From a phage, in sequence record PZ445439.1: a stretch of DNA of 64,000 nucleotides; one strand, 5' to 3'. A model generated the notes under the pieces. The model was not told the origin of the DNA and ran no database searches. It was given only the letters and a program-made list of their open reading frames with translations. The position numbers and the translations under genes were made by a program. The first letter of the stretch is position 1. The number at the start of each line of letters is the position of its first letter. Below are positions 17,692-40,010 of the stretch, piece by piece.

Positions 17692-17714
17692 TAGTTGATA
17701 GTTGTATAGTACCA
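17692..17714 (-). repeat. 23-bp promoter-associated repeat tagttgatagttgtatagtacca (copy 1)
   Basis: exact copies also at 19131..19153 and 35274..35296; near copy 22705..22726. Confidence 0.8.
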
Positions 17715-17735
17715 CAGAGGAACAGTCTTGTAAAC
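17704..17735 (-). promoter_or_regulatory. T4 early-type promoter (-35 GTTTACA, -10 TACTAT)
   Basis: minus strand GTTTACA-18 nt-TACTATAC then GGAGG-ATG. Confidence 0.5.
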
Positions 17736-17737
17736 AA

Positions 17738-18040
17738 CTAAAAGAAACTTCTTTCACAATTTTTTCCACTGAACCAGGCGCTCACTGCTTTCTTAGTCTC
17801 GGGAGCAGTGTTATCCATAAACCATTCAAAGGCAGCCTTTTTATGATTCTGGAGGGCTTCTCGGGCTTTAATCTGCTCACGGTCTATTAACACTAACATA
17901 TGAGCCTTTCTTGTCACCAGGGGCTTCTTATGATTTTTTGAATACTCCCAATCATTTGTCCATCGCATTGTCGTTGCGAATTGAAGTACAGCTTCTTTAA
18001 TTTTAGTTTCGTAAATTTCACGAGCCTTTGAGTATAACAT
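17738..18040 (-). CDS. hypothetical protein
   Basis: ATG at 18040 with GGAGGT RBS. Confidence 0.45.
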   Translation of the reverse strand: MLYSKAREIYETKIKEAVLQFATTMRWTNDWEYSKNHKKPLVTRKAHMLVLIDREQIKAREALQNHKKAAFEWFMDNTAPETKKAVSAWFSGKNCERSFF

Positions 18041-18141
18041 TATTACCTCCATTTACCAGTTTAATTCTAGTCATCTTTTTGATGGCAGTCCATATAATCT
18101 ATTTCTGAACTGCCTTTTTGTCTTAGAAGGTCTCTTATGAA

Positions 18142-19110
18142 TTATTTCAGAAGAGTAACCTCAGCAATTTCTTCCCAACCGTTTTTGTCGGTCATAATAA
18201 AGTCAGCAAGATAAAGAGCAGTACGCAGTGAAACATTGCGTAAACGATTAACATTGACTTTCATCCATGATAATGCTTTATAAGTTTCTTCATCAGAAAG
18301 ACCGCGCTTTTGCATCATGTCAGTTGAAAGAATAACATCTTCAACCCTGACCATAATTTCTTCATTAGTGTGAACACCTAAATCTAAATAAACTGAGCGG
18401 GACACTAATGCTTGTAAATGTGGAGCAAGTTTAGTACCACGGTCTAATTCGCGGTCAATGTCAACGTTTGTGATAAAAACAATCGTTCCTTTAAATTCAA
18501 ACTCACGCTCAATGCCTTTTTCTTCTAAGTAAGAAGATGCAGTGCTCCAGCAGACTTTACGGGTCTCTCCGGTGTCTAGAGCAGCTTTTAGAAGATTAAG
18601 AATGTCCATATCAGAGAAAACATCCACATCATCAATCAAAAGGACAGAATTCTCTTCACGATTATTCCAGAGCTGCTCATAAAGACCGATACCAGAGATT
18701 TTACCATTAATGCTTTTATACTCAATGTATCCAACATCATTTGCTTTATTTAAAGCTTTATCTAAAGAATACGTTTTACCAATACCTGCCGCACCAGAGA
18801 TAATTAATGAACGAATGTTTCCGTTAATAATACCATTCGTCATCATTCCCATAACATTAAATCTTTTATTAATGCGGGTTTTCATATCTTCATATGATTC
18901 TTTAACTTCTTCAACTTTTACACCATCATATGAAATATCTGATTTGTAAACCCAAACACCGCGACGCTTACCGTCAATTTCAACAAAAACTTTACCATCT
19001 CCTTGTGCATCCACCGGAGCATTATCTGGGAACCATTCGCCTAAGAGCTCAAAAGTTCCAGAGATTTCTTTACCGAAGTAGATACCCTTATTGATAGTTA
19101 CAGTTTTCAT
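18142..19110 (-). CDS. P-loop AAA-type ATPase
   Basis: Walker A GAAGIGKT, Walker B LLIDDVD; ATG at 19110 with GGAGAAT RBS. Confidence 0.6.
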   Translation of the reverse strand: MKTVTINKGIYFGKEISGTFELLGEWFPDNAPVDAQGDGKVFVEIDGKRRGVWVYKSDISYDGVKVEEVKESYEDMKTRINKRFNVMGMMTNGIINGNIRSLIISGAAGIGKTYSLDKALNKANDVGYIEYKSINGKISGIGLYEQLWNNREENSVLLIDDVDVFSDMDILNLLKAALDTGETRKVCWSTASSYLEEKGIEREFEFKGTIVFITNVDIDRELDRGTKLAPHLQALVSRSVYLDLGVHTNEEIMVRVEDVILSTDMMQKRGLSDEETYKALSWMKVNVNRLRNVSLRTALYLADFIMTDKNGWEEIAEVTLLK

Positions 19111-19130
19111 TTTATTCTCCAAATCCGTAT

Positions 19131-19153
19131 TAGTTGATAGTTGTATAGTACCA
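19131..19153 (-). repeat. 23-bp promoter-associated repeat (copy 2)
   Basis: identical to 17692..17714. Confidence 0.8.
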
Positions 19154-19175
19154 TAAAGCTTTATGCGTGTAAACA
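19143..19175 (-). promoter_or_regulatory. T4 early-type promoter with A/T-rich UP element
   Basis: minus strand TTTTTCACAAAACTGTTTACA...TACTATAC upstream of AAA ATPase gene. Confidence 0.55.
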
Positions 19176-19203
19176 GTTTTGTGAAAAATTTTTAAAATAA
19201 AAA

Positions 19204-19221
19204 GGGAGCCCGAAGGCTCCC
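19204..19221 (-). terminator. hairpin GGGAGCC-UUCG-GGCUCCC
   Basis: 7-bp GC stem with UUCG loop directly 3' of nucleotidyltransferase gene. Confidence 0.55.
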
Positions 19222-19223
19222 TA

Positions 19224-20237
19224 TCATTTATAATAACTTCGATGGTTTTCGAGATACACCCTTTCAAGGAAGTCATCCCAGAAACTCATGTCTACTTTTT
19301 GCTGCATACCGTTCTTAGAAGCTTCAATGGATGCTGCTTCTACTCGATCGACCACATCTTCCAAAAACTCTTGAACCGTTTTAAACGGATGCTTACCCAA
19401 CTTCACGTCGAGAATAAATGGAGCATCTTTGAGTGGATAGACCAAGTCGCCAGTTTTGTAAATTTCCAACAGTTGAAGTCCACCACGACAAGCATGACTC
19501 AGGGCTTTCCAGTCAATGCCCTCATTCGCTTCAGCCTTACGAGCGCGTTCACCATATTCAGCATCTAATTTGTTCAGTGACTGCTTAAGCTCAATAAGAG
19601 AAAGCGTTGTCTGATATTTACGACCCAGCACAGTGTAGAACGTCTGTGGGCCTGTTTTCTCATGATTATGGAATACCCATTCACAGAATTCGTTTTCTGG
19701 AAGACGATGCTTAATATCTTCAACCTTGGTACGACGCTGCTTAATAGAACCATCTTCTTGATAGTCAACCCACTGATCAGGGATTTGATTAACTACTTTC
19801 AATACATCACGTAATGCAGCCAAACGAGAACCCTTAACGCCATATTTAGAAGCTTGCTTGCGGACATATCCTAAATAGGATTTCATGTTAGTCGTATAAA
19901 AACGAGAACGGTTGTCTTGAATAAACTTCCATACGTCAGGCAAATCAGATTTAACCACTAGTTCAGGTGGAGTGTGAAGCATATCTAATGCTACAGTTTC
20001 ACCATCTGCTGCTAATTTAAAGAAATACTTAAGACTATACAATTCGTGGTCAATATCATCTTTAGTGTTTTTAGATGATGTGTTGTTAGTGTTTTTACTC
20101 ATGTGCTCTTTAACGTTTCCAATAAGAATATCACGAGCAGGAGGAACAAAAATTTCTTTAAAATCTACATCAGATTCTGGGGTAGAAGTTCCATAAAGAT
20201 GACTACCAAAATAGCTTTTCATTACTGTTTTCATCAT
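19224..20237 (-). CDS. Pol-beta superfamily nucleotidyltransferase
   Basis: GS-x10-DVD motif (YFGSHLYGTSTPESDVDF) near N-terminus; 337 aa. Confidence 0.6.
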   Translation of the reverse strand: MMKTVMKSYFGSHLYGTSTPESDVDFKEIFVPPARDILIGNVKEHMSKNTNNTSSKNTKDDIDHELYSLKYFFKLAADGETVALDMLHTPPELVVKSDLPDVWKFIQDNRSRFYTTNMKSYLGYVRKQASKYGVKGSRLAALRDVLKVVNQIPDQWVDYQEDGSIKQRRTKVEDIKHRLPENEFCEWVFHNHEKTGPQTFYTVLGRKYQTTLSLIELKQSLNKLDAEYGERARKAEANEGIDWKALSHACRGGLQLLEIYKTGDLVYPLKDAPFILDVKLGKHPFKTVQEFLEDVVDRVEAASIEASKNGMQQKVDMSFWDDFLERVYLENHRSYYK

Positions 20238-20695
20238 TCAGCCTTATATTCAATAACAGGACACACTTTAGCTTTACGGGCTTTTAAAAATTCGATAATA
20301 AGAGATTTCTTAGGTTGAATAGGAGGTAAATCTTTATACGCTCTATTAATATTTTCTACGTGTAAAGCATAATCCTTTTTCCATTTATAATTTTTATATT
20401 TTTCACGCAAACGCGCAGGAATAACAAATGAACCGATAATAAGTAAAACAACCAAAAGAGCAAGTATAAATGCCGATGGAAGAAGAGTCCATAAACTACC
20501 GAAAATAAGCCAACGTTGTAGACTTTCTGCACAAATAATTGTTAGCCCTACGAGTATAGCACACCCAAAAATAAAAACAAAAAATGTAGGGATAGCAATA
20601 GACCAAAAGTATGCACATAGTGTCTTAGGCCGTTGCCATTCGTCGTTAAACAATTTGAACAATTTATAGTGCCAAGAGTTTTCATTAATAATCAT
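20234..20695 (-). CDS. membrane protein
   Basis: 153 aa; 3 hydrophobic segments. Confidence 0.45.
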   Translation of the reverse strand: MIINENSWHYKLFKLFNDEWQRPKTLCAYFWSIAIPTFFVFIFGCAILVGLTIICAESLQRWLIFGSLWTLLPSAFILALLVVLLIIGSFVIPARLREKYKNYKWKKDYALHVENINRAYKDLPPIQPKKSLIIEFLKARKAKVCPVIEYKAE

Positions 20696-20697
20696 AA

Positions 20698-21219
20698 TTA
20701 TCCTTTCATTGAAGGTGTAATAGTTGTTAAATACTTAATCATAGCTTCAGCTTCTGATTTTGATAATGAAATTTCTCCATTGTTTTGACGAATAGAAATA
20801 AAATCCGGATGACGGTCACCACCAGCTTTTAAAACACACATATAAGTATCAGCTTCGTCTTCAATATTTGAAATGATTGAAGCAGTTCCACATGAATGTG
20901 GTTTTTGATAAATCAATACGGCTTTTCTTCCACCATTTGACTGTTCATAGGCTTTTAATACATCAAACAAATCAGTTCTTTTATCAATAGCTAAAATGTT
21001 ATTTTCATCTTCAATGTTAAATCCTTCGGATACTTCATAAAGCGTTACCCATAAATCACCAATGTCAATAACAGCATTTACGTTTCCACGGCTTTCAAGA
21101 GTATTACAAATTTTCTTGATTTCGTCATAACTCATTTTAATAATATCATCTCCTTGACTAAGGAAGATGTCATTTTTAAATTCAACACGAATTAAACCAC
21201 TTTCACTTGAAATATACAT
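20698..21219 (-). CDS. hypothetical protein (tandem paralogue A)
   Basis: 173 aa; C-terminus SKSEAEAMIKYLTTITPSM resembles neighbour. Confidence 0.5.
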   Translation of the reverse strand: MYISSESGLIRVEFKNDIFLSQGDDIIKMSYDEIKKICNTLESRGNVNAVIDIGDLWVTLYEVSEGFNIEDENNILAIDKRTDLFDVLKAYEQSNGGRKAVLIYQKPHSCGTASIISNIEDEADTYMCVLKAGGDRHPDFISIRQNNGEISLSKSEAEAMIKYLTTITPSMKG

Positions 21220-21225
21220 ATTTCC

Positions 21226-21771
21226 TCACTTTGAAATCATAGTTGGAATGACAGAATCAAGATAAGTCTTTAGCGCAATAGCTTCATCTTTGGTAAATGT
21301 GACAATATGCGATCGAAAATCATCAGTTTGACGAATAGTTAAGACATCTCCATCTTCATAGCATTTTGATACATTTAAAACAGTTTCATCATTCTGATCG
21401 CAAGCATTAGTAATAATAGCATTGCGATTTTTAAACCATTTTAAAATGTGTTTTCTTTCATTAGAATAATAAAAATATTTAATCTTAGTTATAAAATTAT
21501 CCCAATTGTTAATTGATAAGCATATAGACTCGCTTTCAATATTAAATCCTGGGCATAAAGAATAAAAATGAATTTTATGCTCATCATTAATGCTTACAAT
21601 TTTATCAGTATAAGGATTTTCAATTTGGGTTAAATGAATGATTTCACTAGGCGTAAAATATAGCATATCGTCTTCTTGTGTCAAACGATACATATTATTT
21701 ACTTTTTCTATAGCCAATTCACCAAAAAGTGAACTAACTTCTAATACTAATCGTTTTGCCTCTCCCATCAT
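21226..21771 (-). CDS. hypothetical protein (tandem paralogue B)
   Basis: 181 aa; GFNIESES and TKDEAIALKTYLDSVIPTM match paralogue A. Confidence 0.5.
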   Translation of the reverse strand: MMGEAKRLVLEVSSLFGELAIEKVNNMYRLTQEDDMLYFTPSEIIHLTQIENPYTDKIVSINDEHKIHFYSLCPGFNIESESICLSINNWDNFITKIKYFYYSNERKHILKWFKNRNAIITNACDQNDETVLNVSKCYEDGDVLTIRQTDDFRSHIVTFTKDEAIALKTYLDSVIPTMISK

Positions 21772-21935
21772 TACATGCTCCTTTGAATAATATCAATAAT
21801 GTTGTTCACCAGATTATAAGTAAACATTGGGTAATTATATTGAATCATCACATACACAACAAACAAAACTTTCATTCTCTTCTCCTTGGCAGTTGACAAG
21901 ATTACTATACCATAACCTTGCCAACTTGTAAACCG

Positions 21936-22109
21936 TTAAATGTTGTTTTCAATAAAATTTTGAAGCTTTGTATGAGCATCAACCATGATTTTCATTTCTT
22001 CTTTGGCGAAAGCTGTACCTCTTTCCCGAGAAGAATATTCATAGTCAGAAACTGCATTAGCATATTCTTCAATTAGCTTCATTAAAAACATCTGCTTTTC
22101 AGTTTTCAT
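21936..22109 (-). CDS. hypothetical small protein (below ORF-track length cut-off)
   Basis: 57 codons; ATG overlaps stop of 22099..22293 (ATGAAAACTGA); GGTGG RBS. Confidence 0.35.
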   Translation of the reverse strand: MKTEKQMFLMKLIEEYANAVSDYEYSSRERGTAFAKEEMKIMVDAHTKLQNFIENNI

Positions 22110-22293
22110 TATTCCACCTAATCATTTCAAGATATTGAACTAACTTAGCTTTGGATTTATCCAAATCCTTTTTAGCTGCTTCTATACCGTCGTATGAATA
22201 TCCTTCACAATGCTCAACTGCTAATTGATATGAATCTATTTCAATATCACGTGCTAATTTAATGATTTTTTCAAACTGTTCATGTGTTAGCAT
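22099..22293 (-). CDS. hypothetical small protein
   Basis: 64 aa ORF. Confidence 0.4.
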   Translation of the reverse strand: MLTHEQFEKIIKLARDIEIDSYQLAVEHCEGYSYDGIEAAKKDLDKSKAKLVQYLEMIRWNNEN

Positions 22294-22295
22294 AC

Positions 22296-22535
22296 TTAAA
22301 CTCTCGTATTATGATCGATAATTTCATCGAGAAACATATCTAAAGCTTCTACAGCATTATCAACTTTCGCTTCAAGTTCATCAATACCTTTATTTGCAAT
22401 GCCTGACGAAAACCAAGCAAAGTCGCTAAGTTCCTCATCTGCTTTACGAATTAAAGCCACCAATTCTTTAATCTTATCCGCTTGTTCGATACTAATCATT
22501 ATTCCACCACATATGAAAGAGAGAATATTGCACAC
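22296..22535 (-). CDS. hypothetical small acidic protein
   Basis: 79 aa ORF. Confidence 0.4.
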
Positions 22536-22687
22536 GCCATGTGAGTTGCAACTTCATCACACATATTATAGCGTTTCTTAAGAAGTTCTACAAGTTCTTC
22601 ACTAGTAACTTCATCCATGTCGACGAAAAAATCACCATTAATGATGACGTAAATATTTCCTTCTTTATTGAGTGCTTCAATTTTCAT
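22499..22687 (-). CDS. hypothetical small protein
   Basis: ATG at 22687 with AGAGGAG RBS just downstream of early promoter. Confidence 0.4.
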
Positions 22688-22713
22688 GATGTTCTCCTCT
22701 TTATCTGATAGTT

Positions 22714-22745
22714 GTATAGTACCACAGCTCAAACGGAAAGTAAAC
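22714..22745 (-). promoter_or_regulatory. T4 early-type promoter
   Basis: minus strand GGTTTAC...TACTATAC following terminator hairpin. Confidence 0.5.
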
Positions 22746-22761
22746 CGGTAAAATGAAAAAA

Positions 22762-22777
22762 GTCTCCCGAAGGAGAC
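22762..22777 (-). terminator. rho-independent terminator (GUCUCC-UUCG-GGAGAC + U-run)
   Basis: hairpin followed by TTTTTTCATTTT on minus strand, 3' of ORF 22783..23169. Confidence 0.6.
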
Positions 22778-22782
22778 TAATG

Positions 22783-23169
22783 TTATTCGAGGGAAAGAAG
22801 ATATTTACTTTGATAAAACATTCCAGTAATATCATCTATCGTGCTTTGAATGGCTGGAGGCATTTCTTTATAAATGCTGTTAGATTGGTCTAGTATGCGA
22901 TCAATCATTTTAATTGTATCGGTAGGAAGTTTACTAGCATCTGGAATTGAAGGAGTGTATTTTCTACCAGAATACCCTAAATACTGCTCACCAAATTTGT
23001 CAATCAAATCTGGTAACTCAGAAAAAATAAAATCGTATGCTTTGTGTCTAGCATAACTTTTAGTTTCAAAATGTGCAGAATGAAAATAAGCTTGTGCAGC
23101 CATTAATAAACCTAAGTATTCATCTGCCTTTGAAGGTTTTCCACTTTGTGAAAAGTCGCTGAATTTCAT
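22783..23169 (-). CDS. hypothetical protein
   Basis: 128 aa ORF coupled to rI. Confidence 0.45.
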
Positions 23170-26605: not shown

Positions 26606-27067
26606 TCATTGAGTTTTAATTACTGCTTTAGAAGCCTTTCCTGGTAAACGACGACTGTTGATAATTGCCATCCTGCATTGAAGTGACGGGTCTTTGAACT
26701 TCTCATTAGGTTTACAAACCGTAAATCCAAGCCAAAGATTTCCATCAGTGATTTCTAAACGTCCAGGGCGATATTCAATTCCATCGATAAAATCTTCATC
26801 AATATCAGGACGCGGAGGCATACTCAGGAATTCATTAACTTCTAAAACATGGTCTTTTATTTTATGGAATAATTCAAAAACATATGTCTCATCAATCTCC
26901 CGTTGAATTGCACGATCAAGAAGATGCTGAGAATATTTTAGATGAAACGATGAGACCCCTGCTGCTTTTGATGCCTCACGAATCTCATTGTTAATTTGAC
27001 GAAACTCCGACTCAAAGTGACGACGAAGCTTATTTCGACGGATAAAAACTTCTGTGTTGATAGTCAT
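26606..27067 (-). CDS. regB: sequence-specific endoribonuclease RegB
   Basis: 153 aa; position between vs-region and tk as in T4; own strong early promoter. Confidence 0.7.
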   Translation of the reverse strand: MTINTEVFIRRNKLRRHFESEFRQINNEIREASKAAGVSSFHLKYSQHLLDRAIQREIDETYVFELFHKIKDHVLEVNEFLSMPPRPDIDEDFIDGIEYRPGRLEITDGNLWLGFTVCKPNEKFKDPSLQCRMAIINSRRLPGKASKAVIKTQ

Positions 27068-27094
27068 GTTATTCTCCTCTTAACTTATAGAAAA

Positions 27095-27124
27095 ATTATA
27101 CCACAGTTAAGAGGAAAAGTAAAC
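27095..27124 (-). promoter_or_regulatory. T4 early promoter with extended -10 (TGGTATAAT) and -35 GTTTAC
   Basis: minus strand GTTTACT-18 nt-TGGTATAAT then AAGAGGAG RBS of regB; -10 embedded in 9-bp inverted repeat CTCTTAACT/AGTTAAGAG. Confidence 0.6.
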
Positions 27125-27126
27125 AG

Positions 27127-27447
27127 TTATTCTTTAAATCTGATCAATTTATTCATAGACTTTGAAACTTCTGCTCGAACCTCATGTAGATTTTTGAGCT
27201 GCTCAAGACGCTGCTCATAGTAAGCAATTTCGTCTTCTTCAAGACAGTCGTCAGAATCTTCTTTAAGATAACGTGCATAGTCCTGGAAAGCTTTACGGAC
27301 TACTTCCTGGAAATCATCAAGACTTTGAATTTTCTTAGGAGCGGCAGATACACGACGAGGTGCAGTATAATACTCATAACCAAACCCTGCGCTTAATTGA
27401 GCCATTAATATTTTTCCTCTGGTTGGAATACAGCACGGCAAGCCCAC
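27127..27447 (-). CDS. hypothetical protein
   Basis: 106 aa ORF; likely starts at internal Met. Confidence 0.4.
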
Positions 27448-29901: not shown

Positions 29902-30216
29902 TTATTCTTTAGGGAAGTTTTTAGAGTATGCATCATAAAGTTTATTACCGATGCGACGGAAGACTTTAGCTGCAAAACGGTTTTCAGGGTTTTTAATCAT
30001 GATTTGCATCATGTAAGTTCCTGCATCCGAAAGAGCTTCTTCATAGTACCCATTAATTTCTTTAAGAGTCCTACGTTTACCGCCAGGACCGTCAACAGTA
30101 ATTTTCCATTTACCTGTAGAAGTGCGGCTCGGTGGCTCAACTTGTTCAATCCAAATATAACCACCTTCAACGCGTTGGTTGGCGGATTCTGCAATAAATT
30201 CTTGATACGTTTTCAT
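29902..30216 (-). CDS. capsid internal protein (CTS-bearing)
   Basis: N-terminus MKTYQEFIAE; 104 aa; own early promoter. Confidence 0.65.
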   Translation of the reverse strand: MKTYQEFIAESANQRVEGGYIWIEQVEPPSRTSTGKWKITVDGPGGKRRTLKEINGYYEEALSDAGTYMMQIMIKNPENRFAAKVFRRIGNKLYDAYSKNFPKE

Positions 30217-30246: not shown

Positions 30247-30276
30247 ATTATATCATATTAATACTTAAGCGTAAAC
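30247..30276 (-). promoter_or_regulatory. T4 early-type promoter (-35 GTTTAC, -10 TATAAT)
   Basis: minus strand GTTTACGCTTAAGTATTAATATGATATAAT upstream of 29902..30216. Confidence 0.5.
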
Positions 30277-30279: not shown

Positions 30280-30540
30280 TTAAGCTTTACCACCAGAAAT
30301 AATTCCGAAGTTGTTAAAATCATATCCAATATCGTCAACATCTACTTTAGGGCTTGCTACAACATAAGCAATTTCACTACGTTTTGCATAGGTGTTTATT
30401 TCTCTACCATCGCCGCCTAGGAAAGAATACCCATTACGTTTTAATGAGCCAAAATCTTCGGCATCACCAACGAAAGCTTTAACTTTAAATTTGGGGCCTT
30501 TGGCATCTGCTTCAGCGATAAATTCTTGATACATTTTCAT
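30280..30540 (-). CDS. capsid internal protein (CTS-bearing), 86 aa
   Basis: N-terminus MKMYQEFIAE. Confidence 0.65.
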   Translation of the reverse strand: MKMYQEFIAEADAKGPKFKVKAFVGDAEDFGSLKRNGYSFLGGDGREINTYAKRSEIAYVVASPKVDVDDIGYDFNNFGIISGGKA

Positions 30541-30546: not shown

Positions 30547-30960
30547 TTAGTAAATTGATTTACCATAGTATTTGTACCAAGTAGGGCGTTGAGCAATTTT
30601 TTCATCTAAGCGAGCTTGACTTATCGCAATGGACGCTTCGGACGGGACATAATTATTACGAAATTCGACAGGGATGTCGGAAATATCCTGGACAGTCGTG
30701 TCCTTGATTTTGAAACCACGTTTCAAGCATTCAGCGATTAGCTCGATTTGACGTAAACGTAAAAATTCGAGTTTGTCGTAAAAGAATGTTACGTGACCTG
30801 TGCCTAAGATAAATGTTGGAGAGATTTTAAAATCCTTTACACGTTTACCGTTTTGAACATGTTTACGGACTGCACCAAATACGCGTGGTAATTCACGATA
30901 CTCAGCCATAAGATGTTGGTCGGTCAGTTCAGAAACAAGTGTTAAATTGATACGAGTCAT
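30547..30960 (-). CDS. denV: endonuclease V (pyrimidine dimer DNA glycosylase)
   Basis: [12 protein letters not shown]...[11 protein letters not shown]; 137 aa from ATG at 30960 with GGAGGA RBS. Confidence 0.9.
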
Positions 30961-31018
30961 AATTTCCTCCAAGTAATTGATGAATGTATAGTATCAAAGT
31001 CCTTGGAGGAAGTAAACA

Positions 31019-31821
<803 letters not shown>

Positions 31822-32277
31822 TTAAAAGAGGCTGTTCATTATTCGGTAAAGTGAAGGACCCATCACATATTGCCACTGAGTACGAGGAATAAGAGCAAAA
31901 GCATCCATCTCTGGAATCATAACGCCATCTTTATTTTCAAAATAAGACTCGCAATGGCAATTTCTGAACATCTCATGCTCTACTGGAATCGTATAATAAA
32001 ATAGCTGTAAGTCTTTATTACTAGAATATTTAAATACACCTAGGTCTTCTAGAAGGTCTGGATTATAATTGCTAAAACCAGTCTCTTCTAAGCATTCTCT
32101 TCGTGCTGCATCTAATGCGCTTAAATCGGAATTTTCTACACGACCCTTTGGAATATCCCAACGATGTGCCATCATTCCAGGCTTACGAGAACCAGTAACC
32201 CGACCCATAAATAAATCTTTATCTTCTGTCATAAAGATAATACCAGCTGATAATGTTTTCATTTTAATTTCCTGCAT
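31822..32277 (-). CDS. nudE: Nudix hydrolase
   Basis: Nudix box GRVENSDLSALDAARRECLEETG; 151 aa (alternative start at 32262). Confidence 0.85.
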   Translation of the reverse strand: MQEIKMKTLSAGIIFMTEDKDLFMGRVTGSRKPGMMAHRWDIPKGRVENSDLSALDAARRECLEETGFSNYNPDLLEDLGVFKYSSNKDLQLFYYTIPVEHEMFRNCHCESYFENKDGVMIPEMDAFALIPRTQWQYVMGPSLYRIMNSLF

Positions 32278-34092: not shown

Positions 34093-34098
34093 TTATTA

Positions 34099-34692
34099 TC
34101 ATTTCAGAGAATTAATGTATTCCTGAACATCGGCAGAGGTAGTTTCAACCCCGGAAATATTACCATTAAAGGTTTCAACTCGAGCAAGGGTATCTTCAAT
34201 ATCAACCTTAGTCAGCGCTGCAATTTCAACTACATCATCGGCAGTACTAATTCCAAGGGCATTTGCTGCACGAGTTTCACGGATATATTCCAATTTAACT
34301 GCAAGTTCTTGGCGAGCATCATCTAACTCAACTACTTTCTTGGCGATTTCAATTCGCATTTCAGCATAACCGTCAGCCTTAGTAGTCAACTGCTCAGCTG
34401 TTCGACGATATAGTAAACCGAGTTTAGCATGCATTGTTACATCTTGACCTTCAGAAAGAAGCTTGCGAATTTCACGCTCTTTTGATTCGGCCTGCTTATT
34501 CTTTTCGACAATAAGTTCACGAATACGTTTTTCTTCATTAATAGATTTAACAGAAGCAGTTTTTAGGTCTTTAATTTTATCAAGTAGTTTTGCTGCTGCA
34601 GCAGTATACTGTTCTTCAACAGATAAATTTTTAGCCATAGCAGAACCAAGTTTAGTGCGAATAAACTCAACAATTTTCTTCAGTGTGTTCAT
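34099..34692 (-). CDS. long coiled-coil protein, PspA/IM30-like
   Basis: 197 aa almost entirely heptad-type helix; pattern resembles PspA family (low certainty). Confidence 0.4.
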
Positions 34693-34735
34693 AGTATTTC
34701 CTTAGGTTAATTAAGATTTAAAATCCATGAGAGTA

Positions 34736-34912
34736 TTATACTCCGGATAGTTTGTAAACTATTTTAACATCGCCTTTTGCTGCTTTATAACCTTCAGCCC
34801 AAGATATAACAGAGTTTTTATCTGAAGATTCAAATTCTGGCATTGGGCTTTCGCCAATGTTCACACAATATGTTTCTTCATTTTCGTCGAACCAAATAAT
34901 TAAAGTAGTCAT
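34736..34912 (-). CDS. hypothetical small protein (below ORF-track cut-off)
   Basis: 58 codons MTTLIIWFDENEETYCVNIGESPMPEF...; GGAGAAAT RBS. Confidence 0.35.
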   Translation of the reverse strand: MTTLIIWFDENEETYCVNIGESPMPEFESSDKNSVISWAEGYKAAKGDVKIVYKLSGV

Positions 34913-34980
34913 TTATTTCTCCGTTTCTATATTTGTTTTGATAAGTCTATAATAACACCGTCCTTGGTGTTTGTACACAA

Positions 34981-35256
34981 TTATTTCATATTATTGAAAT
35001 ATTCTTCTGCGATTTCGTCGTTATCATGGTAAACTTTAGAAGACAGTTTAACATAACCTTCAGCAGCGAACATGTTAATCACAACCTTTACAGTATACCA
35101 CTGACCGTCTTCATTACCCATTACTGCATAGGTTTCAAACATCGGATGGTCAGGACCGATAACTTTAATATCATTCACCGTACGACCAAAATCTTCTGAA
35201 ACACATTTCATAAAGAAGTTGAACAGTTCACCGTAATTATCCATTTCGTTCTCCAA
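34981..35256 (-). CDS. hypothetical acidic protein
   Basis: 91 aa; early promoter and GGAGAA RBS upstream. Confidence 0.5.
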   Translation of the reverse strand: MENEMDNYGELFNFFMKCVSEDFGRTVNDIKVIGPDHPMFETYAVMGNEDGQWYTVKVVINMFAAEGYVKLSSKVYHDNDEIAEEYFNNMK

Positions 35257-35273
35257 GTTGTTTTCTGTATCAG

Positions 35274-35296
35274 TAGTTGATAGTTGTATAGTACCA
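35274..35296 (-). repeat. 23-bp promoter-associated repeat (copy 3)
   Basis: identical to 17692..17714 and 19131..19153. Confidence 0.8.
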
Positions 35297-35317
35297 TGGA
35301 AGAACAGGGATGTAAAC
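35286..35317 (-). promoter_or_regulatory. T4 early-type promoter with UP element
   Basis: minus strand TTTTTTCACAAAACTGTTTACA...TACTATAC. Confidence 0.55.
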
Positions 35318-35440
35318 AGTTTTGTGAAAAAATTTTTAAAAAGTTTTGGGGAATTCTAGGGCAGGGAGAGGCAATTAAAGGATAGGATAATATATTATAA
35401 AGGGTAGAAACTAAATGATGCCTAGAGAGGCCCGGAAAGG

Positions 35441-35471
35441 CTTAGATACCAAAAAGCCCCAACCTTTCGGC
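35441..35471 (-). repeat. 31-bp direct repeat containing terminator hairpin (copy A)
   Basis: aaaaagccccaacctttcggctgaggctaag; 30/31 identical to 36006..36036. Confidence 0.85.
35445..35468 (-). terminator. rho-independent terminator (stem AGCCUCA/UGGGGCU, GAAA-type loop, U5)
   Basis: hairpin followed by TTTTT on minus strand, 3' of CTS protein gene. Confidence 0.6.
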
Positions 35472-35485
35472 TGAGGCTAAGAATG

Positions 35486-35959
35486 TTATTTGATTTGTTT
35501 AGCAGACCAAATGCGGTCTTTAATAATTTTTTGGATGTCTTCAACATACTCAAGAGAGTGAACATGCGGGTTATCTTTGAAACTATAAGCACGAGCTAAC
35601 TTTTGGCCTTCAGTTTTGATTACTAAAAGCTCTTTAAGGATAGCTTCATATTTGGAGATAATTCCTTTAACAATATTTTTCTCTTGTGCTACTTTAGGAT
35701 CTGCTTTAGGAGCAGGTTTACCTGAAGCCTTTGCAAAAGCAGCTCCAGTAGCAACTAAACTTTTCCAAGCCATACTAACTGCATTTCCCGTAAATCCTTC
35801 TGCTTTCATATCGCGAGCAAATTGGAATCGCGATTCATCAGAAGCATCTTTATAGGAATATTTACCCGCGGCAATGGCAGCTTTTGCGACAGCTTGAATT
35901 TCAGTGCTAGATGCTTCATTTAACACCGCTTCATTTAAAAATTGAGCATATGATTTCAT
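35486..35959 (-). CDS. capsid-targeted internal protein-like protein (CTS-bearing), 157 aa
   Basis: N-terminus MKSYAQFLNE-AVLNE resembling MKTYQEFIAE CTS; late promoter upstream; flanked by terminator repeats. Confidence 0.6.
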   Translation of the reverse strand: MKSYAQFLNEAVLNEASSTEIQAVAKAAIAAGKYSYKDASDESRFQFARDMKAEGFTGNAVSMAWKSLVATGAAFAKASGKPAPKADPKVAQEKNIVKGIISKYEAILKELLVIKTEGQKLARAYSFKDNPHVHSLEYVEDIQKIIKDRIWSAKQIK

Positions 35960-35995
35960 CTTATTTCCTGTTTTAATTCGTGGTTTTAATATACT

Positions 35996-36003
35996 TATTT
36001 ATA
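35996..36003 (-). promoter_or_regulatory. late promoter TATAAATA
   Basis: minus strand GTATAAATAAG about 35 nt upstream of 35959 start. Confidence 0.45.
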
Positions 36004-36005
36004 CT

Positions 36006-36036
36006 AAAAAGCCCCAACCTTTCGGCTGGGGCTAAG
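36006..36036 (-). repeat. 31-bp direct repeat containing terminator hairpin (copy B)
   Basis: aaaaagccccaacctttcggctggggctaag. Confidence 0.85.
36010..36033 (-). terminator. rho-independent terminator of tRNA/stable-RNA operon
   Basis: perfect 7-bp stem AGCCCCA/UGGGGCU + inner CC/GG, followed by TTTTT. Confidence 0.65.
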
Positions 36037-36039
36037 CCT

Positions 36040-36349
36040 TGCGGCAACCTTGTCGGGGTTCCACCTGCTAAGGCAAGTGTTTGTACGAAACGCCGGGATT
36101 CGAACCCGGTTACCAAGCAGTTGACGCTACTCAATATTTTTAAAAGGCCATATCTCGACCATATCCGAACGTTCCGTCAAAAACGCTACTCGGCTTATGG
36201 CAAAGATATTTCCTCGAATCGATAATTCGGTGCGCCGTTTCTGCTGTGATATAAGGGGACATTAACAGATCGTAAAGATTTGTTAATGTCAGTCCTTAAA
36301 CAGGGAACATCAGTCCGACGACTTACCGGTAGCGACCCGGCTTCTTGTC
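36040..36349 (-). ncRNA. stable small RNA region (T4 species 1/2, rnaC/rnaD-like) with tRNA-like T-arm
   Basis: no ORF; canonical T-arm CCGGG-TTCGAAT-CCCGG and paired ends between tRNA-Arg and terminator; boundaries approximate. Confidence 0.45.
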
Positions 36350-36426
<77 letters not shown>

Positions 36427-36429
36427 TAG

Positions 36430-37095
36430 TTAAAATTTCATTTTTCGACCTTTAAACCATCCTTCTGGAATTGGGTCAGTTTTCTTAATACGTTTAGAAA
36501 CTTTTTCATCTAATGAATGAATCCACATCATACCAAATTGGGAATTCTTTTCACCTTTTTGGTGATTATTTTTAGCATGAATTTCTTTCATTTTATTAAT
36601 AGTTTCAGGAGTATGGGTCTTACCCAAGAAAGATTTAGTATTTAAAAATTTCTCTCTATACTTAGGATTATCCCAAAGCTGTTTAAACCTTTCTGAACCC
36701 ATTTTACGATATTTTTCTTTAAGGTCTGGGTCGTTCTCAAATCTGGTTTTAAAAGCAGCAGCCCCTTTTAAGGAAGCTTCTTTCTTTTTATCCAAATATT
36801 CTTTAGTGTTTAAATGGTCCCAACCACCTTCACCACCTAATTTCAAATTATAAACATCAGGGCGCTTTAAAAACTCTTCAGTCAAAATATTCTTTTCTGA
36901 CTCAAACATAGAGGTTTTATCGTCAAAGAACTCTAATATTTCTTTAGAGAAATTTTCTATACCATACTTGTCTTGGGCTCTTTTTAATAATTTACCAGAA
37001 CCCATATATCCATCATCTAAATTTTCGGTAGAATGAGCGCCTATATAGATTTTATTATTAATTTTATTTGTTATTTTATAAGTGTAATGGAACAT
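36430..37095 (-). CDS. segB: GIY-YIG homing endonuclease SegB
   Basis: 221 aa; YTYKITNKINNKIYIGAHS GIY-YIG module; located inside tRNA cluster as in T4. Confidence 0.8.
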   Translation of the reverse strand: MFHYTYKITNKINNKIYIGAHSTENLDDGYMGSGKLLKRAQDKYGIENFSKEILEFFDDKTSMFESEKNILTEEFLKRPDVYNLKLGGEGGWDHLNTKEYLDKKKEASLKGAAAFKTRFENDPDLKEKYRKMGSERFKQLWDNPKYREKFLNTKSFLGKTHTPETINKMKEIHAKNNHQKGEKNSQFGMMWIHSLDEKVSKRIKKTDPIPEGWFKGRKMKF

Positions 37096-37136
37096 AAATA
37101 TCTCCTATTTCTAAGAGTATTTATGTTCCCAAAATA

Positions 37137-37208
37137 TGGCCCTGGGTGGAATTGAACCACCATCTGGCGATTATGAGTCGCTTGCTTGAACCTTCCAGCT
37201 ACAGGGCC
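37137..37208 (-). tRNA. tRNA-Ile (anticodon CAU, lysidine-type)
   Basis: acceptor GGCCCTG/CAGGGCC, anticodon loop CTCATAA, T-loop GGTTCAATTCC. Confidence 0.75.
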
Positions 37209-37209
37209 T

Positions 37210-37285
37210 TGGTGCTGATTGACGGAATCGAACCGCCGACCTTCTCATTACAAGTGAGTTGCTCTACCTACTGAGCTAAATCAGC
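37210..37285 (-). tRNA. tRNA-Thr (anticodon UGU), CCA encoded
   Basis: acceptor GCTGATT/AATCAGC, D-arm TAGCTCAGTAGGTAGAGC, anticodon loop CTTGTAA, T-loop GGTTCGATTCC. Confidence 0.85.
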
Positions 37286-37292
37286 GAAATTA

Positions 37293-37379
37293 CGGAGGCG
37301 ATAGGATTTGAACCTATGAGTCGCCGGAGCGACTGCCGGTTTTCAAGACCGGTGCATTAAACCACTCTGCCACGCCTCC
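37293..37379 (-). tRNA. tRNA-Ser (anticodon UGA), long variable arm
   Basis: acceptor GGAGGCG/CGCCTCC, anticodon stem CCGGT/ACCGG loop CTTGAAA, T-loop GGTTCAAATCC. Confidence 0.85.
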
Positions 37380-37381
37380 AG

Positions 37382-37455
37382 TCTCCGTGGCAGGATTTGA
37401 ACCTACGACATTCTGCTCCCAAAGCAGACGCTCTACCAAACTGAGCTACACGGAG
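37382..37455 (-). tRNA. tRNA-Pro (anticodon UGG)
   Basis: acceptor CTCCGTG/CACGGAG, D-arm TAGCTCAGTTTGGTAGAGC, anticodon loop TTTGGGA, T-loop GGTTCAAATCC. Confidence 0.85.
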
Positions 37456-37467
37456 TAAATTAAATTT

Positions 37468-37539
<72 letters not shown>

Positions 37540-37545
37540 AAACTT

Positions 37546-37632
37546 TGGTACGAGAAGTGGGACTCGAACCCACAAGGAAATCATTCCGCAGCATTTTAAG
37601 TGCTGTGCCTTTACCAATTTGACCATTCTCGC
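37546..37632 (-). tRNA. tRNA-Leu (anticodon UAA), long variable arm, CCA encoded
   Basis: acceptor GCGAGAA/TTCTCGT, anticodon stem CAGCA/TGCTG loop CTTAAAA, T-loop GGTTCGAGTCC. Confidence 0.85.
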
Positions 37633-37633
37633 G

Positions 37634-37706
37634 CTGGGAATAAAGGACTCGAACCTTTGCATCTAGCAGTCAAAGTGCTATGCCTTACCAACTTGGCTAA
37701 TTCCCA
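37634..37706 (-). tRNA. tRNA-Gln (anticodon UUG)
   Basis: acceptor TGGGAAT/ATTCCCA, D-arm TAGCCAAGTTGGTAAGGC, anticodon stem TAGCA/TGCTA loop CTTTGAC, T-loop GGTTCGAGTCC. Confidence 0.85.
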
Positions 37707-37792
37707 ATTATTAACAAAGGCTCTCAAACAAGAACCCTTGATGATAGAGGGTATTAATCAGTGCGGTATGAGTTAATAATAACAAATAATTC

Positions 37793-38308
37793 TTAAAGCA
37801 AATTAAACATTTTAACGGTCGGCAAAACAATTTCTTTTTCTATATAAGAGTATTTAACACTCTCAACTACACGCAAAAAATCATAATCATAATACTCAGA
37901 AGCACTGCCTAAAATATTAATAAGTCCTTCAAGCACTTTATTACCATTCACAAAGAATAAGTCAAATACACGTTCTTCGTCTTCTTCGGATTTATTACCA
38001 AGGTCAACTTCTATGTCAAAGACCTTTTTAATGAATTCTGGATAAAGTTGTTCTGAGAACAGTCCTTCAACCAAGTATTCATAAATAAAAAGCGATTGCT
38101 CGCTGAACAAGCCATTACCACAATAACGTTCAGCTTTAGTACTAGAATGTCTACTTTTAAACTTCTTTAAAAGATATTGAAATTGTAAGATTTCATGCTC
38201 TTCTACGCCAAACAGTGTTTTAGTTTTATAGTTGTCACCATCATTTTCCCAGGTAGTGACATCAATTACGTAACCCTGTGGAATTGTAGTACCTAAACAA
38301 ATATTCAT
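37793..38308 (-). CDS. hypothetical acidic protein
   Basis: 171 aa ORF upstream of tRNA cluster. Confidence 0.45.
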   Translation of the reverse strand: MNICLGTTIPQGYVIDVTTWENDGDNYKTKTLFGVEEHEILQFQYLLKKFKSRHSSTKAERYCGNGLFSEQSLFIYEYLVEGLFSEQLYPEFIKKVFDIEVDLGNKSEEDEERVFDLFFVNGNKVLEGLINILGSASEYYDYDFLRVVESVKYSYIEKEIVLPTVKMFNLL

Positions 38309-38604
38309 TTGCTCACCATATTAATGTAAGTATATTCAATACATTCAAGACCCAAAGGATTCTTGAAAATATCATATTCAAGAGGACCTTTTTCCGTTTC
38401 AATAAAGAAATCAAAATTTACTGTATTAAATTTACGGTCTTCCTTCACTAATTTAACCTGAGAAGATGAACGGTCAATGTAAACCTTTTCAACTTCAAAA
38501 CATGTTAAAATGCCATAATCATCAATCAAGGCTTTAGCTGCTTCTTGATCATATTTATATCCATTTTCAATGGATGATACTTTAGCATAAAGAATCATTA
38601 TCAC
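38305..38604 (-). CDS. hypothetical protein
   Basis: 99 aa; its first 26 nt are duplicated at 39013..39038. Confidence 0.45.
   Translation of the reverse strand: MIMILYAKVSSIENGYKYDQEAAKALIDDYGILTCFEVEKVYIDRSSSQVKLVKEDRKFNTVNFDFFIETEKGPLEYDIFKNPLGLECIEYTYINMVSK
38576..38601 (-). repeat. 26-bp direct repeat (copy 1, gene start)
   Basis: tactttagcataaagaatcattatca identical at 39013..39038. Confidence 0.85.
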
Positions 38605-38981
38605 ACTCCGTAGTCTATCTTGACCAATCTACCTTTGTAGTAGCCAAAGTTCTTTGGAAAGGCATCATACTCAAAGAAATCACGGTCAAGCGTTCTGCAT
38701 TCATCACCATCAACATCATTATAGAGCTTTTGCAAATCAGATTTAAAAAGCTCCTTATCCTCAACTGGCTCTGCTTTGTGCATCACAACCATGAGACCAA
38801 ATCTGTTTGAGTATGCTATTGGGCATAGGTGCTTGTTATCATACCCCTTCCACTGACCTTCTGTAAGATTGCTGAGCATACCCTGCACGAAGTGTTTCCA
38901 TGTCTTGGGGATAGGGAATTTAATAGCATACTTACGTGTTAGTAGTACCCATCTGGTTCCACCCGATTTAATTAATTTCAT
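38601..38981 (-). CDS. hypothetical protein
   Basis: 126 aa ORF. Confidence 0.45.
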   Translation of the reverse strand: MKLIKSGGTRWVLLTRKYAIKFPIPKTWKHFVQGMLSNLTEGQWKGYDNKHLCPIAYSNRFGLMVVMHKAEPVEDKELFKSDLQKLYNDVDGDECRTLDRDFFEYDAFPKNFGYYKGRLVKIDYGV

Positions 38982-39012
38982 AGTCTCAGCTACCTCAATA
39001 TTAATTTAAGCA

Positions 39013-39038
39013 ATATCATTCCTATAAGGTAGTACTTT
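39013..39038 (-). repeat. 26-bp direct repeat (copy 2, intergenic pseudo-start)
   Basis: encodes truncated MILYAKV... then stop after 15 codons. Confidence 0.85.
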
Positions 39039-39055
39039 AGCATAAAGAATCATTA

Positions 39056-39466
39056 TCAGCCTCTATCAACGATAGCATGAGTATGGGCATTTACGATTTG
39101 CCACCAGTCGAAACGATTGGAACCATAATCTGGTTTATTTTCATTTTCTTTAATGATATCACGCAATTTATCTTCTGTTTCAGCATACGCAATTAAATCA
39201 TCATATCCACCACAAGGATAATAATTATCACCTGCGAATAAAAGAAAATTTACCTTAGATGGATTTACGTAATAATGGTCTTTAGGATATTTAGTTCCTC
39301 TCCAATCAGTTACTTCAACATAACGGTAAGAAAATCCATTTTTACTTTCAATCCAACTCCACGCTTCAAAAGGAGTATTAAAAACTTTATCAGGTATTAA
39401 ATTACCTTCAAAATGAGAAGGATTTGCATAATCCCCGGCATAAACATAATATTCGTTAATACTCAT
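39056..39466 (-). CDS. hypothetical protein (Tyr/Trp-rich)
   Basis: 136 aa ORF. Confidence 0.45.
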   Translation of the reverse strand: MSINEYYVYAGDYANPSHFEGNLIPDKVFNTPFEAWSWIESKNGFSYRYVEVTDWRGTKYPKDHYYVNPSKVNFLLFAGDNYYPCGGYDDLIAYAETEDKLRDIIKENENKPDYGSNRFDWWQIVNAHTHAIVDRG

Positions 39467-39652
39467 TTATTCACCTTTAGAAATTTTATCCATAACGATA
39501 GCAATTAAACCAATTAAAAATGCTACTACAAGTGAAAACACATTTTCTGCTGTAGTTAATAATCCGCATATAAATCCAACAAACATTGAAAAACTAAAAG
39601 CGGAAGCAGAAATTGCAATAGCAACATTTCGAATTAATTCACAACGTTTCAT
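39467..39652 (-). CDS. small membrane protein
   Basis: 61 aa, two hydrophobic segments; GAGGAG RBS and early promoter upstream. Confidence 0.45.
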   Translation of the reverse strand: MKRCELIRNVAIAISASAFSFSMFVGFICGLLTTAENVFSLVVAFLIGLIAIVMDKISKGE

Positions 39653-39680
39653 TTTATTCTCCTCAGTAGTTGATAGGGTA

Positions 39681-39710
39681 ATAGTATCACTACCCTATCT
39701 AAAAGTAAAC
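39681..39710 (-). promoter_or_regulatory. T4 early-type promoter with -10 inside 9-bp inverted repeat
   Basis: minus strand GTTTACTTTTAGATAGGGTAGTGATACTATTACCCTATCAA; inverted repeat GATAGGGTA/TACCCTATC. Confidence 0.5.
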
Positions 39711-39944
39711 TCATTTTTTACGAAAAATTGATTTATTTTCTGCTGCCCATTTTTCAATAACTGCAGCCGGACCAGTAACAACAATTTTATCACCGTAATC
39801 TTCTGCGGCGAGTTGACCGAAATCATCTAATGCATCACGAAGAACTCCATGAGGCATTTCACCCATTTTATCTTTCTTGCCAGTGTAAATAAACTCAACT
39901 TTTACATCAGCAGTTTCAGCAATAAATTCTTGATACGTTTTCAT
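39711..39944 (-). CDS. capsid internal protein (CTS-bearing; ipI position)
   Basis: MKTYQEFIAE N-terminus from ATG at 39944 with GGAGAAC RBS; adjacent to 57B. Confidence 0.6.
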   Translation of the reverse strand: MKTYQEFIAETADVKVEFIYTGKKDKMGEMPHGVLRDALDDFGQLAAEDYGDKIVVTGPAAVIEKWAAENKSIFRKK

Positions 39945-39980
39945 TTTGTTCTCCAATTTCACATTTGTTTTGATAGGGTA

Positions 39981-40010
39981 ATAGTATCACTACTAAAACC
40001 CCATGTAAAC
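39981..40010 (-). promoter_or_regulatory. T4 early-type promoter
   Basis: minus strand TTTCACAAAGTTGTTTACA-17 nt-TACTAT upstream of ipI-position gene. Confidence 0.5.

Follow-up and report, generated by a model that had tools for sequence, protein, structure and literature searches.

Early Promoter Units with Stem-Loops across the −10 Box and Variable Gene Cassettes in a T4-Type Phage

Early Promoter Units in the Window

Short repeats and stem-loops recur in front of small accessory open reading frames (ORFs) in a 64,000-nt stretch of the phage sequence record PZ445439.1, which we analyzed whole and call the window. What are these repeats, and do they have a part in the reshuffling of genes? 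By their sequence, they are the cores of T4-type early promoters, of the sigma70 type and on the minus strand. The first-pass annotation of the window had matched them to the promoter early stem-loops (PeSLs) defined by Arbiol et al. in 2010 (PMC2839356) and treated for T4 and PST by Comeau, Arbiol, and Krisch in 2014 (PMC4122927). The match holds at the level of sequence features: a promoter, an A/T-rich region upstream, a stem-loop, a Shine–Dalgarno (SD) sequence with a start codon, a hyperplastic location, and insertions or deletions (indels) next to the unit. Taking the evidence together, we consider it probable that these are early-promoter PeSL units that combine recombination patches with SD-insulating hairpins. 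The stem-loops that span the −10 box resemble insulators of translation, not terminators or devices for recombination. The narrower claim—that folding of the promoter-spacer strand onto its own leader or SD would act as a translational insulator of early genes, and that this is both real and new—we advance tentatively, as a possibility that falls a little short of probable.

How many such units does the window hold? The phage is a Tequatrovirus, and the window is collinear with positions 34,965–98,503 of T4 at 91–99% identity; several Escherichia coli phages are 96–97.6% identical to it. The motif search that the first-pass annotation had proposed, done with the published PST/T4 PeSL promoter consensus TTTACW-N17-TAYWAT (PMC4122927), returned 12 matches on the minus strand and none on the plus strand, with 0.41 expected. 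Weaker units at 21932, 30275, and 34977, found with a weight matrix, and a degenerate one at 34758, found with a relaxed pattern, bring the total to 16 (each unit is named by the first T of its −35 box on the minus strand). A generic sigma70 scan of the window did not discriminate, giving 87 matches where 83 were expected; the T4-specific pattern alone picks the units out. All of them lie within 6.2–40 kb, where every gene in the promoter-bearing part is on the minus strand, and the structural block at 40–64 kb has no promoter units. As the annotation had proposed, they flank accessory genes, standing in the nrdC.x, mobD.x, vs.x, e.x, and internal protein (IP) regions and at the borders of variable cassettes.

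The units share a layout of ∼90–110 bp: an A/T-rich upstream (UP) element, a −35 box G-TTTAC(A/T), a 17-bp spacer, TGn with a −10 box TAYWAT, a leader of ∼20 nt with CTATCAA, a GGAG-type SD, and ATG. The G preceding the −35 box is present in all 16 and TGn in 13, and A+T makes up 68–88% of the 25 nt upstream in 10 of the 16 (window, 64.8%); exceptions include 11130, at 36%, which lies inside coding sequence. From the −10 box to the ATG it is 27–43 nt in 14 of the 15 units measured and 61 nt at 6326, with SDs of the GGAG, GAGG, or AGGA type. T4 has orthologous promoters at nrdC.4, nrdC.8 (T4 position 53942), nrdC.10, mobD.5, e.8, regB, denV, trna.4, ipI, and others, although its GenBank record carries no promoter features. 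T4 early promoters (Pe) form a UP/−35/TGn/−10 “über” class whose consensus extends beyond the −35 and −10 boxes (Hinton 2010, PMC2988021). The units resemble Pe in their GTTTAC −35 box, TGn, −10 box, A/T-rich upstream region, and orthologous positions, and they differ not in kind but in point changes and in the cassettes that lie between promoters; like Pe, they would be read by the host sigma70 RNA polymerase. The units and the elements within them, all on the minus strand, are as follows.

17675..17759: unit of the nrdC.8 homolog (17734); −35 at 17729–17734, −10 at 17706–17711, 23-mer at 17692–17714, ATG at 17675–17677
17681–17695 and 17711–17725: arms of the nrdC.8 hairpin, in which the promoter spacer pairs with the SD GGAGGAACAG
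19108..19222: unit of the nrdC.10 homolog (19173); −35 at 19168–19173, −10 at 19145–19150, 23-mer at 19131–19153, ATG at 19108–19110; its spacer holds a 14-bp palindrome, CATAAAGCTTTATG
19222–19203: intrinsic terminator upstream of nrdC.10, AGGGAGCC-TTCG-GGCTCCCT and then TTTTATTTTA
21873..21957: unit 21932, upstream of a 34-aa ORF, TTTACA-N17-TATAGT; −35 at 21927–21932, −10 at 21904–21909
∼21912–21926 and 21891–21905: hairpin of 21932 across its −10 box; its spacer-leader duplex ranks first of 172
22685..22778: unit of the mobD.5 homolog (22744); −35 at 22739–22744, −10 at 22716–22721, near copy of the 23-mer at 22702–22724, ATG at 22685–22687
22778–22761: intrinsic terminator upstream of mobD.5, AGTCTCC-TTCG-GGAGACT and then TTTTTCATTT
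27065..27148: regB unit (27123); −35 at 27118–27123, −10 at 27095–27100, ATG at 27065–27067
27072–27085 and 27105–27118: inverted repeat at regB, in which the spacer pairs with the SD AAGAGGAGAA
30214..30300: unit 30275 of an IP gene (start MKTYQEFIAE), TTTACG-N17-TATAAT, no hairpin
30958..31041: denV unit (31016); −35 at 31011–31016, −10 at 30988–30993, ATG at 30958–30960
within 30955–30978 and 30997–31020: arms of the denV pairing, spacer TTCCTCCAAG with SD CTTGGAGGAA
34690..35002: weaker units 34977 (TGTACA-N17-TATTAT) and 34758 (degenerate, TTTACA-N17-TACTCT, before e.6), bracketing a 58-aa ORF
35242..35345: unit of the e.8 homolog (35316); −35 at 35311–35316, −10 at 35288–35293, 23-mer at 35274–35296, ATG at 35242–35244
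39650..39734: trna.4 unit (39709); −35 at 39704–39709, −10 at 39681–39686, ATG at 39650–39652; downstream border of the variable IP cassette, with T4 homology breaking at 39690
39672–39680 and 39691–39699: perfect 9-bp inverted repeat of trna.4, bracketing the −10 box
39942..40034: unit 40009 of the IP cassette (77-aa protein, MKTYQEFIAETA); −35 at 40004–40009, −10 at 39981–39986; upstream border of the cassette that stands in for T4 ipI
39960–39986 and 39991–40017, plus 39955–39963 and 40016–40024: long imperfect palindrome of 40009
6236..14776: span of the units outside 17692–40010, namely 14751 (nrdC.4), 6771 (55.6), 6326, and 11130, the last within the 49.1 coding sequence and upstream of pin

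A Shared 23-mer among Promoter Paralogs

Three of the units share more than a promoter consensus. The 23-mer TAGTTGATAGTTGTATAGTACCA is present exactly where the annotation had reported it, at 17692–17714, 19131–19153, and 35274–35296, and had zero matches in 100 shuffles. The near copy said to lie at 22705–22726 also exists, with two mismatches, but its true span is 22702–22724. Its minus-strand reading, TGG-TACTAT-ACAACTATCAACTA, takes in an extended −10 box and the discriminator and runs on through the first bases of the transcript, in agreement with its description as the −10 and transcript-start region. A similarity of ∼75 bp had been noted between the copies at 19131 and 35274; it does reach ∼70 bp and includes the UP region, but it is not continuous. 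It falls into two blocks, one identical at 24 of 24 positions over the −10 box and leader and the other at ∼31 of 32 over the −35 box and UP region, which read TGTAAACAGTTTTGTGAAAAA(A)TTTTTAAAA (the UP/−35 block common to units 19173 and 35316 is TTTTTCACAAAACTGTTTACA), and the ∼15-nt spacer between the blocks is unrelated in the two copies. A position-specific model of the other promoters gives the 23-mer a probability of ∼10^−7.8, beyond what a shared consensus alone would produce, and unrelated promoter pairs have only 12–16 of the 23 positions in common.

How did the copies arise? T4 has the 22-mer TGGTACTATACAACTATCAACT at its orthologous nrdC.8, nrdC.10, and e.8, and five other relatives carry the same block at the same three genes; the 23-mer is thus ancestral in the genus. 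Had this phage recently duplicated a segment with a promoter, the exact identity over 23 nt would be accounted for, yet the copies have unrelated spacers and flanks and are common to T4 and the five other relatives at orthologous genes, and we rejected such a duplication on these grounds as highly improbable. Since neither spacers nor flanks are related among the copies, duplication or conversion of whole promoters is likewise excluded. The four copies make up a paralogous promoter sub-family. In contig 2974787500, a relative, the nrdC.8 promoter has a clustered 5-nt patch (TACTATACAAC to TATTATTACCC) that converts it to the trna.4/IP type, with only one other difference within 88 nt. The patch looks like short-patch exchange between promoter paralogs, and selection, together with occasional exchange of this kind, would keep the 23-mer as it is.

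Gene-Content Variation at Promoter Units

Does gene content vary at the units? Seventeen indel or replacement blocks separate the window from T4, and the part from 16.5 to 41 kb is a mosaic, of which the best of 1,200 matching phage records covers 91%, in eight pieces. The comparison across relatives that the annotation had suggested, made with IMG/VR loci around the nrdC.10 and lysozyme homologs (L numbers), found gain, loss, and replacement of cassettes at the nrdC.10 promoter, the IP locus, and the e.7 region, with junctions that map inside promoter units. In L008, three ORFs and two promoters are inserted at the nrdC.10 promoter, from ...ACAACTATCAA to GGAGAATAAAATGAAA of nrdC.10, and the left junction of the insertion, ...TACTATACAACTATCAA, lies inside the 23-mer. 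In L010, whose arrangement is related to that of L008, the nrdC.10 promoter and leader have been replaced by a promoter-leader module near-identical to the IP promoter 40009 of the window. Three different promoter-leader modules precede nrdC.10 proteins that are ≥98% identical.

The IP locus and the e.7 region vary in the same manner. In locus L051, two IP cassettes stand in tandem, each headed by the same 28 nt, TTAAAATAATTTCACAAAGTTGTTTACA; only the second IP type is present in the window and in L049, and only ipI in T4 and L050. The borders of the IP cassette in the window are promoters 40009 and 39709. In the e.7 region, L052 has the 58-aa ORF, e.7, and e.6, each with a promoter of its own, whereas the window is without e.7 and T4 has e.7 and is without the 58-aa ORF. 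Indel edges in relatives also fall at the denV promoter and at the 30275 promoter (30187 and 30228).

Five small ORFs in the window begin with the IP capsid-targeting motif or a close variant (39711–39944, 29902–30216, 30280–30540, 31019–31300, and 35486–35959, all on the minus strand). None of the five is in sequence that aligns to T4 at those positions; the set of IP-like cassettes in this phage is therefore larger than, and different from, that of T4. A Pfam scan of two of them, 39711–39944 and 35486–35959, gave no match.

The junctions at conserved blocks are observed in relatives; homologous recombination at these blocks, the mechanism of the PeSL model, is what we infer for them. The blocks common to all units would offer short patches of homology through which cassettes could be joined, lost, or replaced, the candidates being the UP/−35 region, the −10/leader region, the SD–ATG region, and, in IP genes, also the capsid-targeting codons. 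How far does the evidence carry modular shuffling through the repeats, as the annotation had proposed it? Junctions within promoter blocks are seen, and 12 of 40 distinct indels (relative to T4 and five contigs) have an edge ≤40 bp from a unit, with 14.8% expected (P = 0.011, on a uniform null that takes no account of the confinement of indels to intergenic DNA). Besides this choice of null, other observations count against a general role: the remaining 28 indels lie away from promoter units, several of them being plain gain or loss of homing endonucleases or of an intron, and a deletion between the 23-mers at 19131 and 17692, which would remove nrdC.10 and nrdC.9, occurs in 0 of 614 phage records. 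The pattern agrees with the published view that PeSLs account for a nontrivial share of plasticity, not all of it (PMC4122927). The annotation had named two observations that would speak against its reading, repeats no commoner than a promoter consensus would yield and a constant gene content between them in relatives; the data show neither, and its reading is supported.

These same numbers leave some room for a plainer account, in which the units are ordinary promoters only, the repeats being a long T4 early consensus that lies near indels since both are intergenic. The T4 early consensus is known to reach well past the −35 and −10 boxes (PMC2988021), the CTATCAA-type leader recurs across many genera, most indels are elsewhere, the enrichment rests on a uniform rather than an intergenic null, and the predicted 23-mer by 23-mer deletion is absent from the 614 records. 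Against it stand the low probability of the 23-mer under the promoter model, the junctions inside conserved blocks, the tandem IP cassettes with identical 28-nt heads, and the clustered conversion patch in one relative. We therefore regard it as unlikely, and favor PeSL units whose blocks serve as recombination patches.

Two Kinds of Stem-Loop

Where do the stem-loops lie with respect to the promoters? They are of two kinds. Textbook intrinsic terminators, with a GC-rich stem and a T-run, are found just upstream of units 19173 and 22744 only. The second kind is a hairpin across the −10 box whose 5′ arm is the promoter spacer, whose loop holds the −10 box, and whose 3′ arm is the unit's own leader or SD; such hairpins occur at 17734, 21932, 27123, 31016, 39709, and 40009, and there is none at 30275, 34977, 14751, or 6771. 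The 9-bp inverted repeats that the annotation had described around −10 boxes belong to this kind. At trna.4, GATAGGGTA/TACCCTATC pair over 9 nt at 100%, and at regB, the repeat extends to 14 nt at 93% and includes the 9-bp CCTCTTAAC/GTTAAGAGG. The repeats are real, but the coordinates that had been given for them, 27095–27124 and 39681–39710, are the spans from −35 to −10, and the downstream arms lie just outside. The −10-spanning hairpins in the window have no U-tract and are followed by AAAAUG, UAACAUG, AUUAUG, or AACUAC; Rfam has no family for them and reports only the eight tRNAs.

A −10-spanning hairpin would form only on read-through RNA, because transcripts from the unit's own promoter lack the 5′ arm. 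The folds predicted for read-through RNA are stable: −24.5 kcal/mol for nrdC.8 (z = −4.35), −21.1 for regB (z = −3.81), −20.7 for 21932 (z = −3.57), −19.1 for denV (z = −2.96), and −17.2 for trna.4 (z = −2.77). The leader hairpin of gene e (lysozyme), at 31774–31850 on the minus strand, was recovered as a positive control at −16.2 kcal/mol (z = −3.55), with two TATAAATA late promoters in and just before its 5′ arm and a buried SD; the −10-spanning folds are at least as stable as this experimentally established hairpin. The 3′ arm is the SD itself for nrdC.8, regB, and denV, and the predicted probability that the SD is unpaired rises from 0.00 on read-through RNA to 0.79 on the unit's own transcript for nrdC.8, from 0.02 to 0.84 for regB, and from 0.10 to 0.61 for denV. 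Burial is predicted to be weaker at e.8, where the spacer pairs weakly with the SD (fold −13.2 kcal/mol, z = −1.27), and at mobD.5.

Spacer-Leader Pairing across T4-Like Phages

Is the pairing of spacer with leader specific to each promoter? The window and 64 T4-like phage loci together supplied 172 diverged promoter-leader units. The duplex between a unit's own −35/spacer and leader averages −9.29 kcal/mol, against −6.58 for cross pairs (permutation z = −15.8, a statistic that is indicative and not exact for sequences that are phylogenetically nonindependent), and duplexes of −14 kcal/mol or below make up 23% of own pairs and 1.8% of cross pairs. Control pairings of UP with leader, spacer with coding sequence, and UP with spacer gave no signal.

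The pairing also persists across genera while its sequences change. At regB, the duplex reaches −10 kcal/mol or below in 16 of the 19 distinct promoters from other T4-like lineages, and at denV it does so in 9 of 13; nearly all of these conserved duplexes end 0–6 nt from the ATG. At least eight different arm sequences are used at regB, among them TTTTCCTCTTGAC/GTTAAGAGGAGAA, TTCTCCTCTAGTTG/CAACTAGAGGAGAA, TCTCCTGTAAG/CTTACAGGAGA, TCCTCATTTG/CAAATGAGGA, TCTCCTTTTAGTTGTGT/ACACACTAAAAGGAGA, TCTCCTGTAG/CTACAGGAGA, and CCTCCTTT/AAAGGAGG; nrdC.8 and denV orthologs likewise keep the spacer pairing with unrelated arms. From 18 regB promoters aligned with MAFFT, RNAalifold predicted no structure, since the arms, which differ by lineage, fall out of register. 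With a spacer CTCC and an SD GGAG as anchors, pairing extended over a mean of 2.93 positions, against 0.95 under the null, a narrow result from 14 usable promoters. The hairpin is rare where an upstream terminator is present, occurring in 3 of 27 such units and in 49 of the 145 units without one (P = 0.021), which fits the view that terminator and −10-spanning hairpin are two alternative insulations from upstream transcription.

What would such a hairpin do? On read-through RNA, it would bury the SD of nrdC.8, regB, and denV, and more weakly that of e.8 and mobD.5, and a buried SD would block both ribosome binding and cleavage by RegB at GGAG; RegB cleaves SDs of the GGAG type, and structured RNA is shielded from it (PMC3014915). 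Ribosomes and RegB alike would then reach the three genes only on immediate-early transcripts from their own promoters, and each promoter-gene cassette would be insulated from its genomic context. Several points tell against this proposal, beyond the nonindependence of the promoter set. Start sites, read-through, and translation at the units are inferred from sequence. About half of the promoters have no spacer-leader pairing, including 19173, 30275, 34977, and 14751. Among the strong hairpins, 24 cover the SD and 27, such as those of trna.4 and 21932 in the window, are leader-proximal, just after the −10 box, and SD masking is therefore not the whole function. Counts of G:T against A:C mismatches in the stems, 4 vs. 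2, are too few to tell selection on RNA from selection on DNA.

Two units in other loci, 12056 in L048 and 10781 in L063, could form alternative pairings, either spacer GAGGAC with leader GTCCTC or leader GTCCTCC with SD GGAGGAC. The second would mask the SD on the unit's own transcript and free it on RNA read through from upstream, opposite to what is proposed for the window.

Could the −10-spanning stem-loops instead be terminators or attenuators of upstream transcription, with no translational role? A stem-loop of RB49/phi1 placed before lacZ lowered expression as strongly as the rrnB T1 terminator, and hairpins over the −35 box in distant genera are followed by T-runs. The hairpins of the window, in contrast, lack a U-tract; in half of the strong cases, the SD itself makes up the 3′ arm, which follows it through sequence change; and such hairpins are scarce where a true terminator is present. 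We consider this reading improbable for the window, though it deserves some weight. The stem-loops of the distant T4-like genera (loci L040, L042, L044, L041, and L045) overlap the −35 box, continue into a T-run (e.g., GGAGTGTTTACAAGACACTCCTTTTTT), and lie ∼60–130 nt upstream of the nrdC.10 homolog (position 10001); there, terminator and next promoter therefore use the same bases.

A third possibility is that the inverted repeats act as DNA, forming cruciforms or single-strand hairpins that attract, for example, endonuclease VII and make break-prone hot spots. Inverted repeats do lie at cassette borders, and the few G:T and A:C mismatches do not suffice to show selection at the RNA level. Loops of 10–19 nt, however, disfavor extrusion; the T4 regB stem has a G:U position, which is a mismatch in DNA; the link with the SD and the anticorrelation with terminators point to RNA; and at the units whose inverted repeats are strongest, 17734 and 27123, the relatives examined have no indel junction. 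A role as DNA seems quite unlikely, and translational insulation remains the function that the −10-spanning hairpins most resemble.

Relation to Known Systems

How do these observations relate to what has been described? The finding of promoter repeats and PeSLs is itself already known. The units are like published PeSLs in their AT-rich region, sigma70-type boxes, stem-loop, SD, and ATG, and in their hyperplastic location before small accessory ORFs with indels nearby. Published PeSL stem-loops occupy five positions within or beside the promoter; for PST and T4, the stem-loop was placed just upstream of the promoter and seen as a terminator or attenuator, an arrangement that only two units have here. 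In contrast to that description, in most stem-loops of the window the structure extends across the −10 box, no U-tract follows, and the spacer pairs with the unit's own leader or SD. The 2010 PeSL paper (PMC2839356) mentions neither translation nor ribosomes and treats the SD as a landmark only, as do the accessible portions of the 2014 paper (PMC4122927). Shuffling at the IP locus goes back to Repoila et al. (1994), as cited in PMC4122927; as far as that account goes, the window is like the T-even IP-locus polymorphism, in which different IP genes swap between 57B and trna.4 with their own promoters and MKTYQEFIAE codons.

The nearest precedent for the proposed insulation is the set of SD-sequestering hairpins with a nested promoter at T4 e, soc, 49, and I-TevI (PMC3014915, PMC2988022). 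There, the SD is paired on long upstream transcripts and the transcripts of the nested promoter lack the 5′ arm, as is predicted here. One T4 review describes the genes under such control as all late. The nested promoter is late in those genes and early in the window, and translation, postponed there to the late period, would here be confined to the immediate-early period. As modeled, then, the hairpins of nrdC.8, regB, and denV work like those of the e/soc/49/I-TevI class and are not members of it, their nested promoters being early. A spacer:leader/SD insulator of early genes is not described in two 2010 T4 reviews or the 2010 PeSL paper, and a literature search, made largely without subscription journals, found no description of one.

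What would follow? For annotation, one further T4-like genome gains 16 early promoter units, along with two terminators and the limits of its variable cassettes. Internal proteins and many small early ORFs lie between the units; such genes are where host-takeover and anti-defense functions usually reside, and cassette borders help in comparing phages chosen for therapy. If the insulator is real, it would extend classic T4 translational control from late to early genes and would account for the fixed expression window of a shuffled cassette at any landing site. Such independence from context is what a shufflable module needs, and insulated expression units could then be designed by a simple rule.

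Other Differences from T4

Several of the 17 blocks that distinguish the window from T4 are absences. The window is without mobB, mobC, the nrdD intron with I-TevII, mobD, and segC (at ∼3470, ∼8270, ∼9558, 20238–21201, and ∼46273). The mobD site is filled by two ORFs, one encoding a y05I-like putative transcription factor (PF24449/PF24448) and one of 153 aa with hydrophobic stretches. An insertion of ∼600 bp between gp47 and a-gt, adjoining T4 gene 47.1, holds a 207-aa ORF (1466–2089, minus strand), possibly for a homing endonuclease of the seg type, which matches GIY-YIG weakly (E = 3e-4; its 21.4 bits narrowly miss the 22.6-bit cutoff). Eight tRNA genes cluster at 36353–37706 on the minus strand, as they do in T4, with flanks unlike those of T4 at 35480–36001 and 37812–38327.

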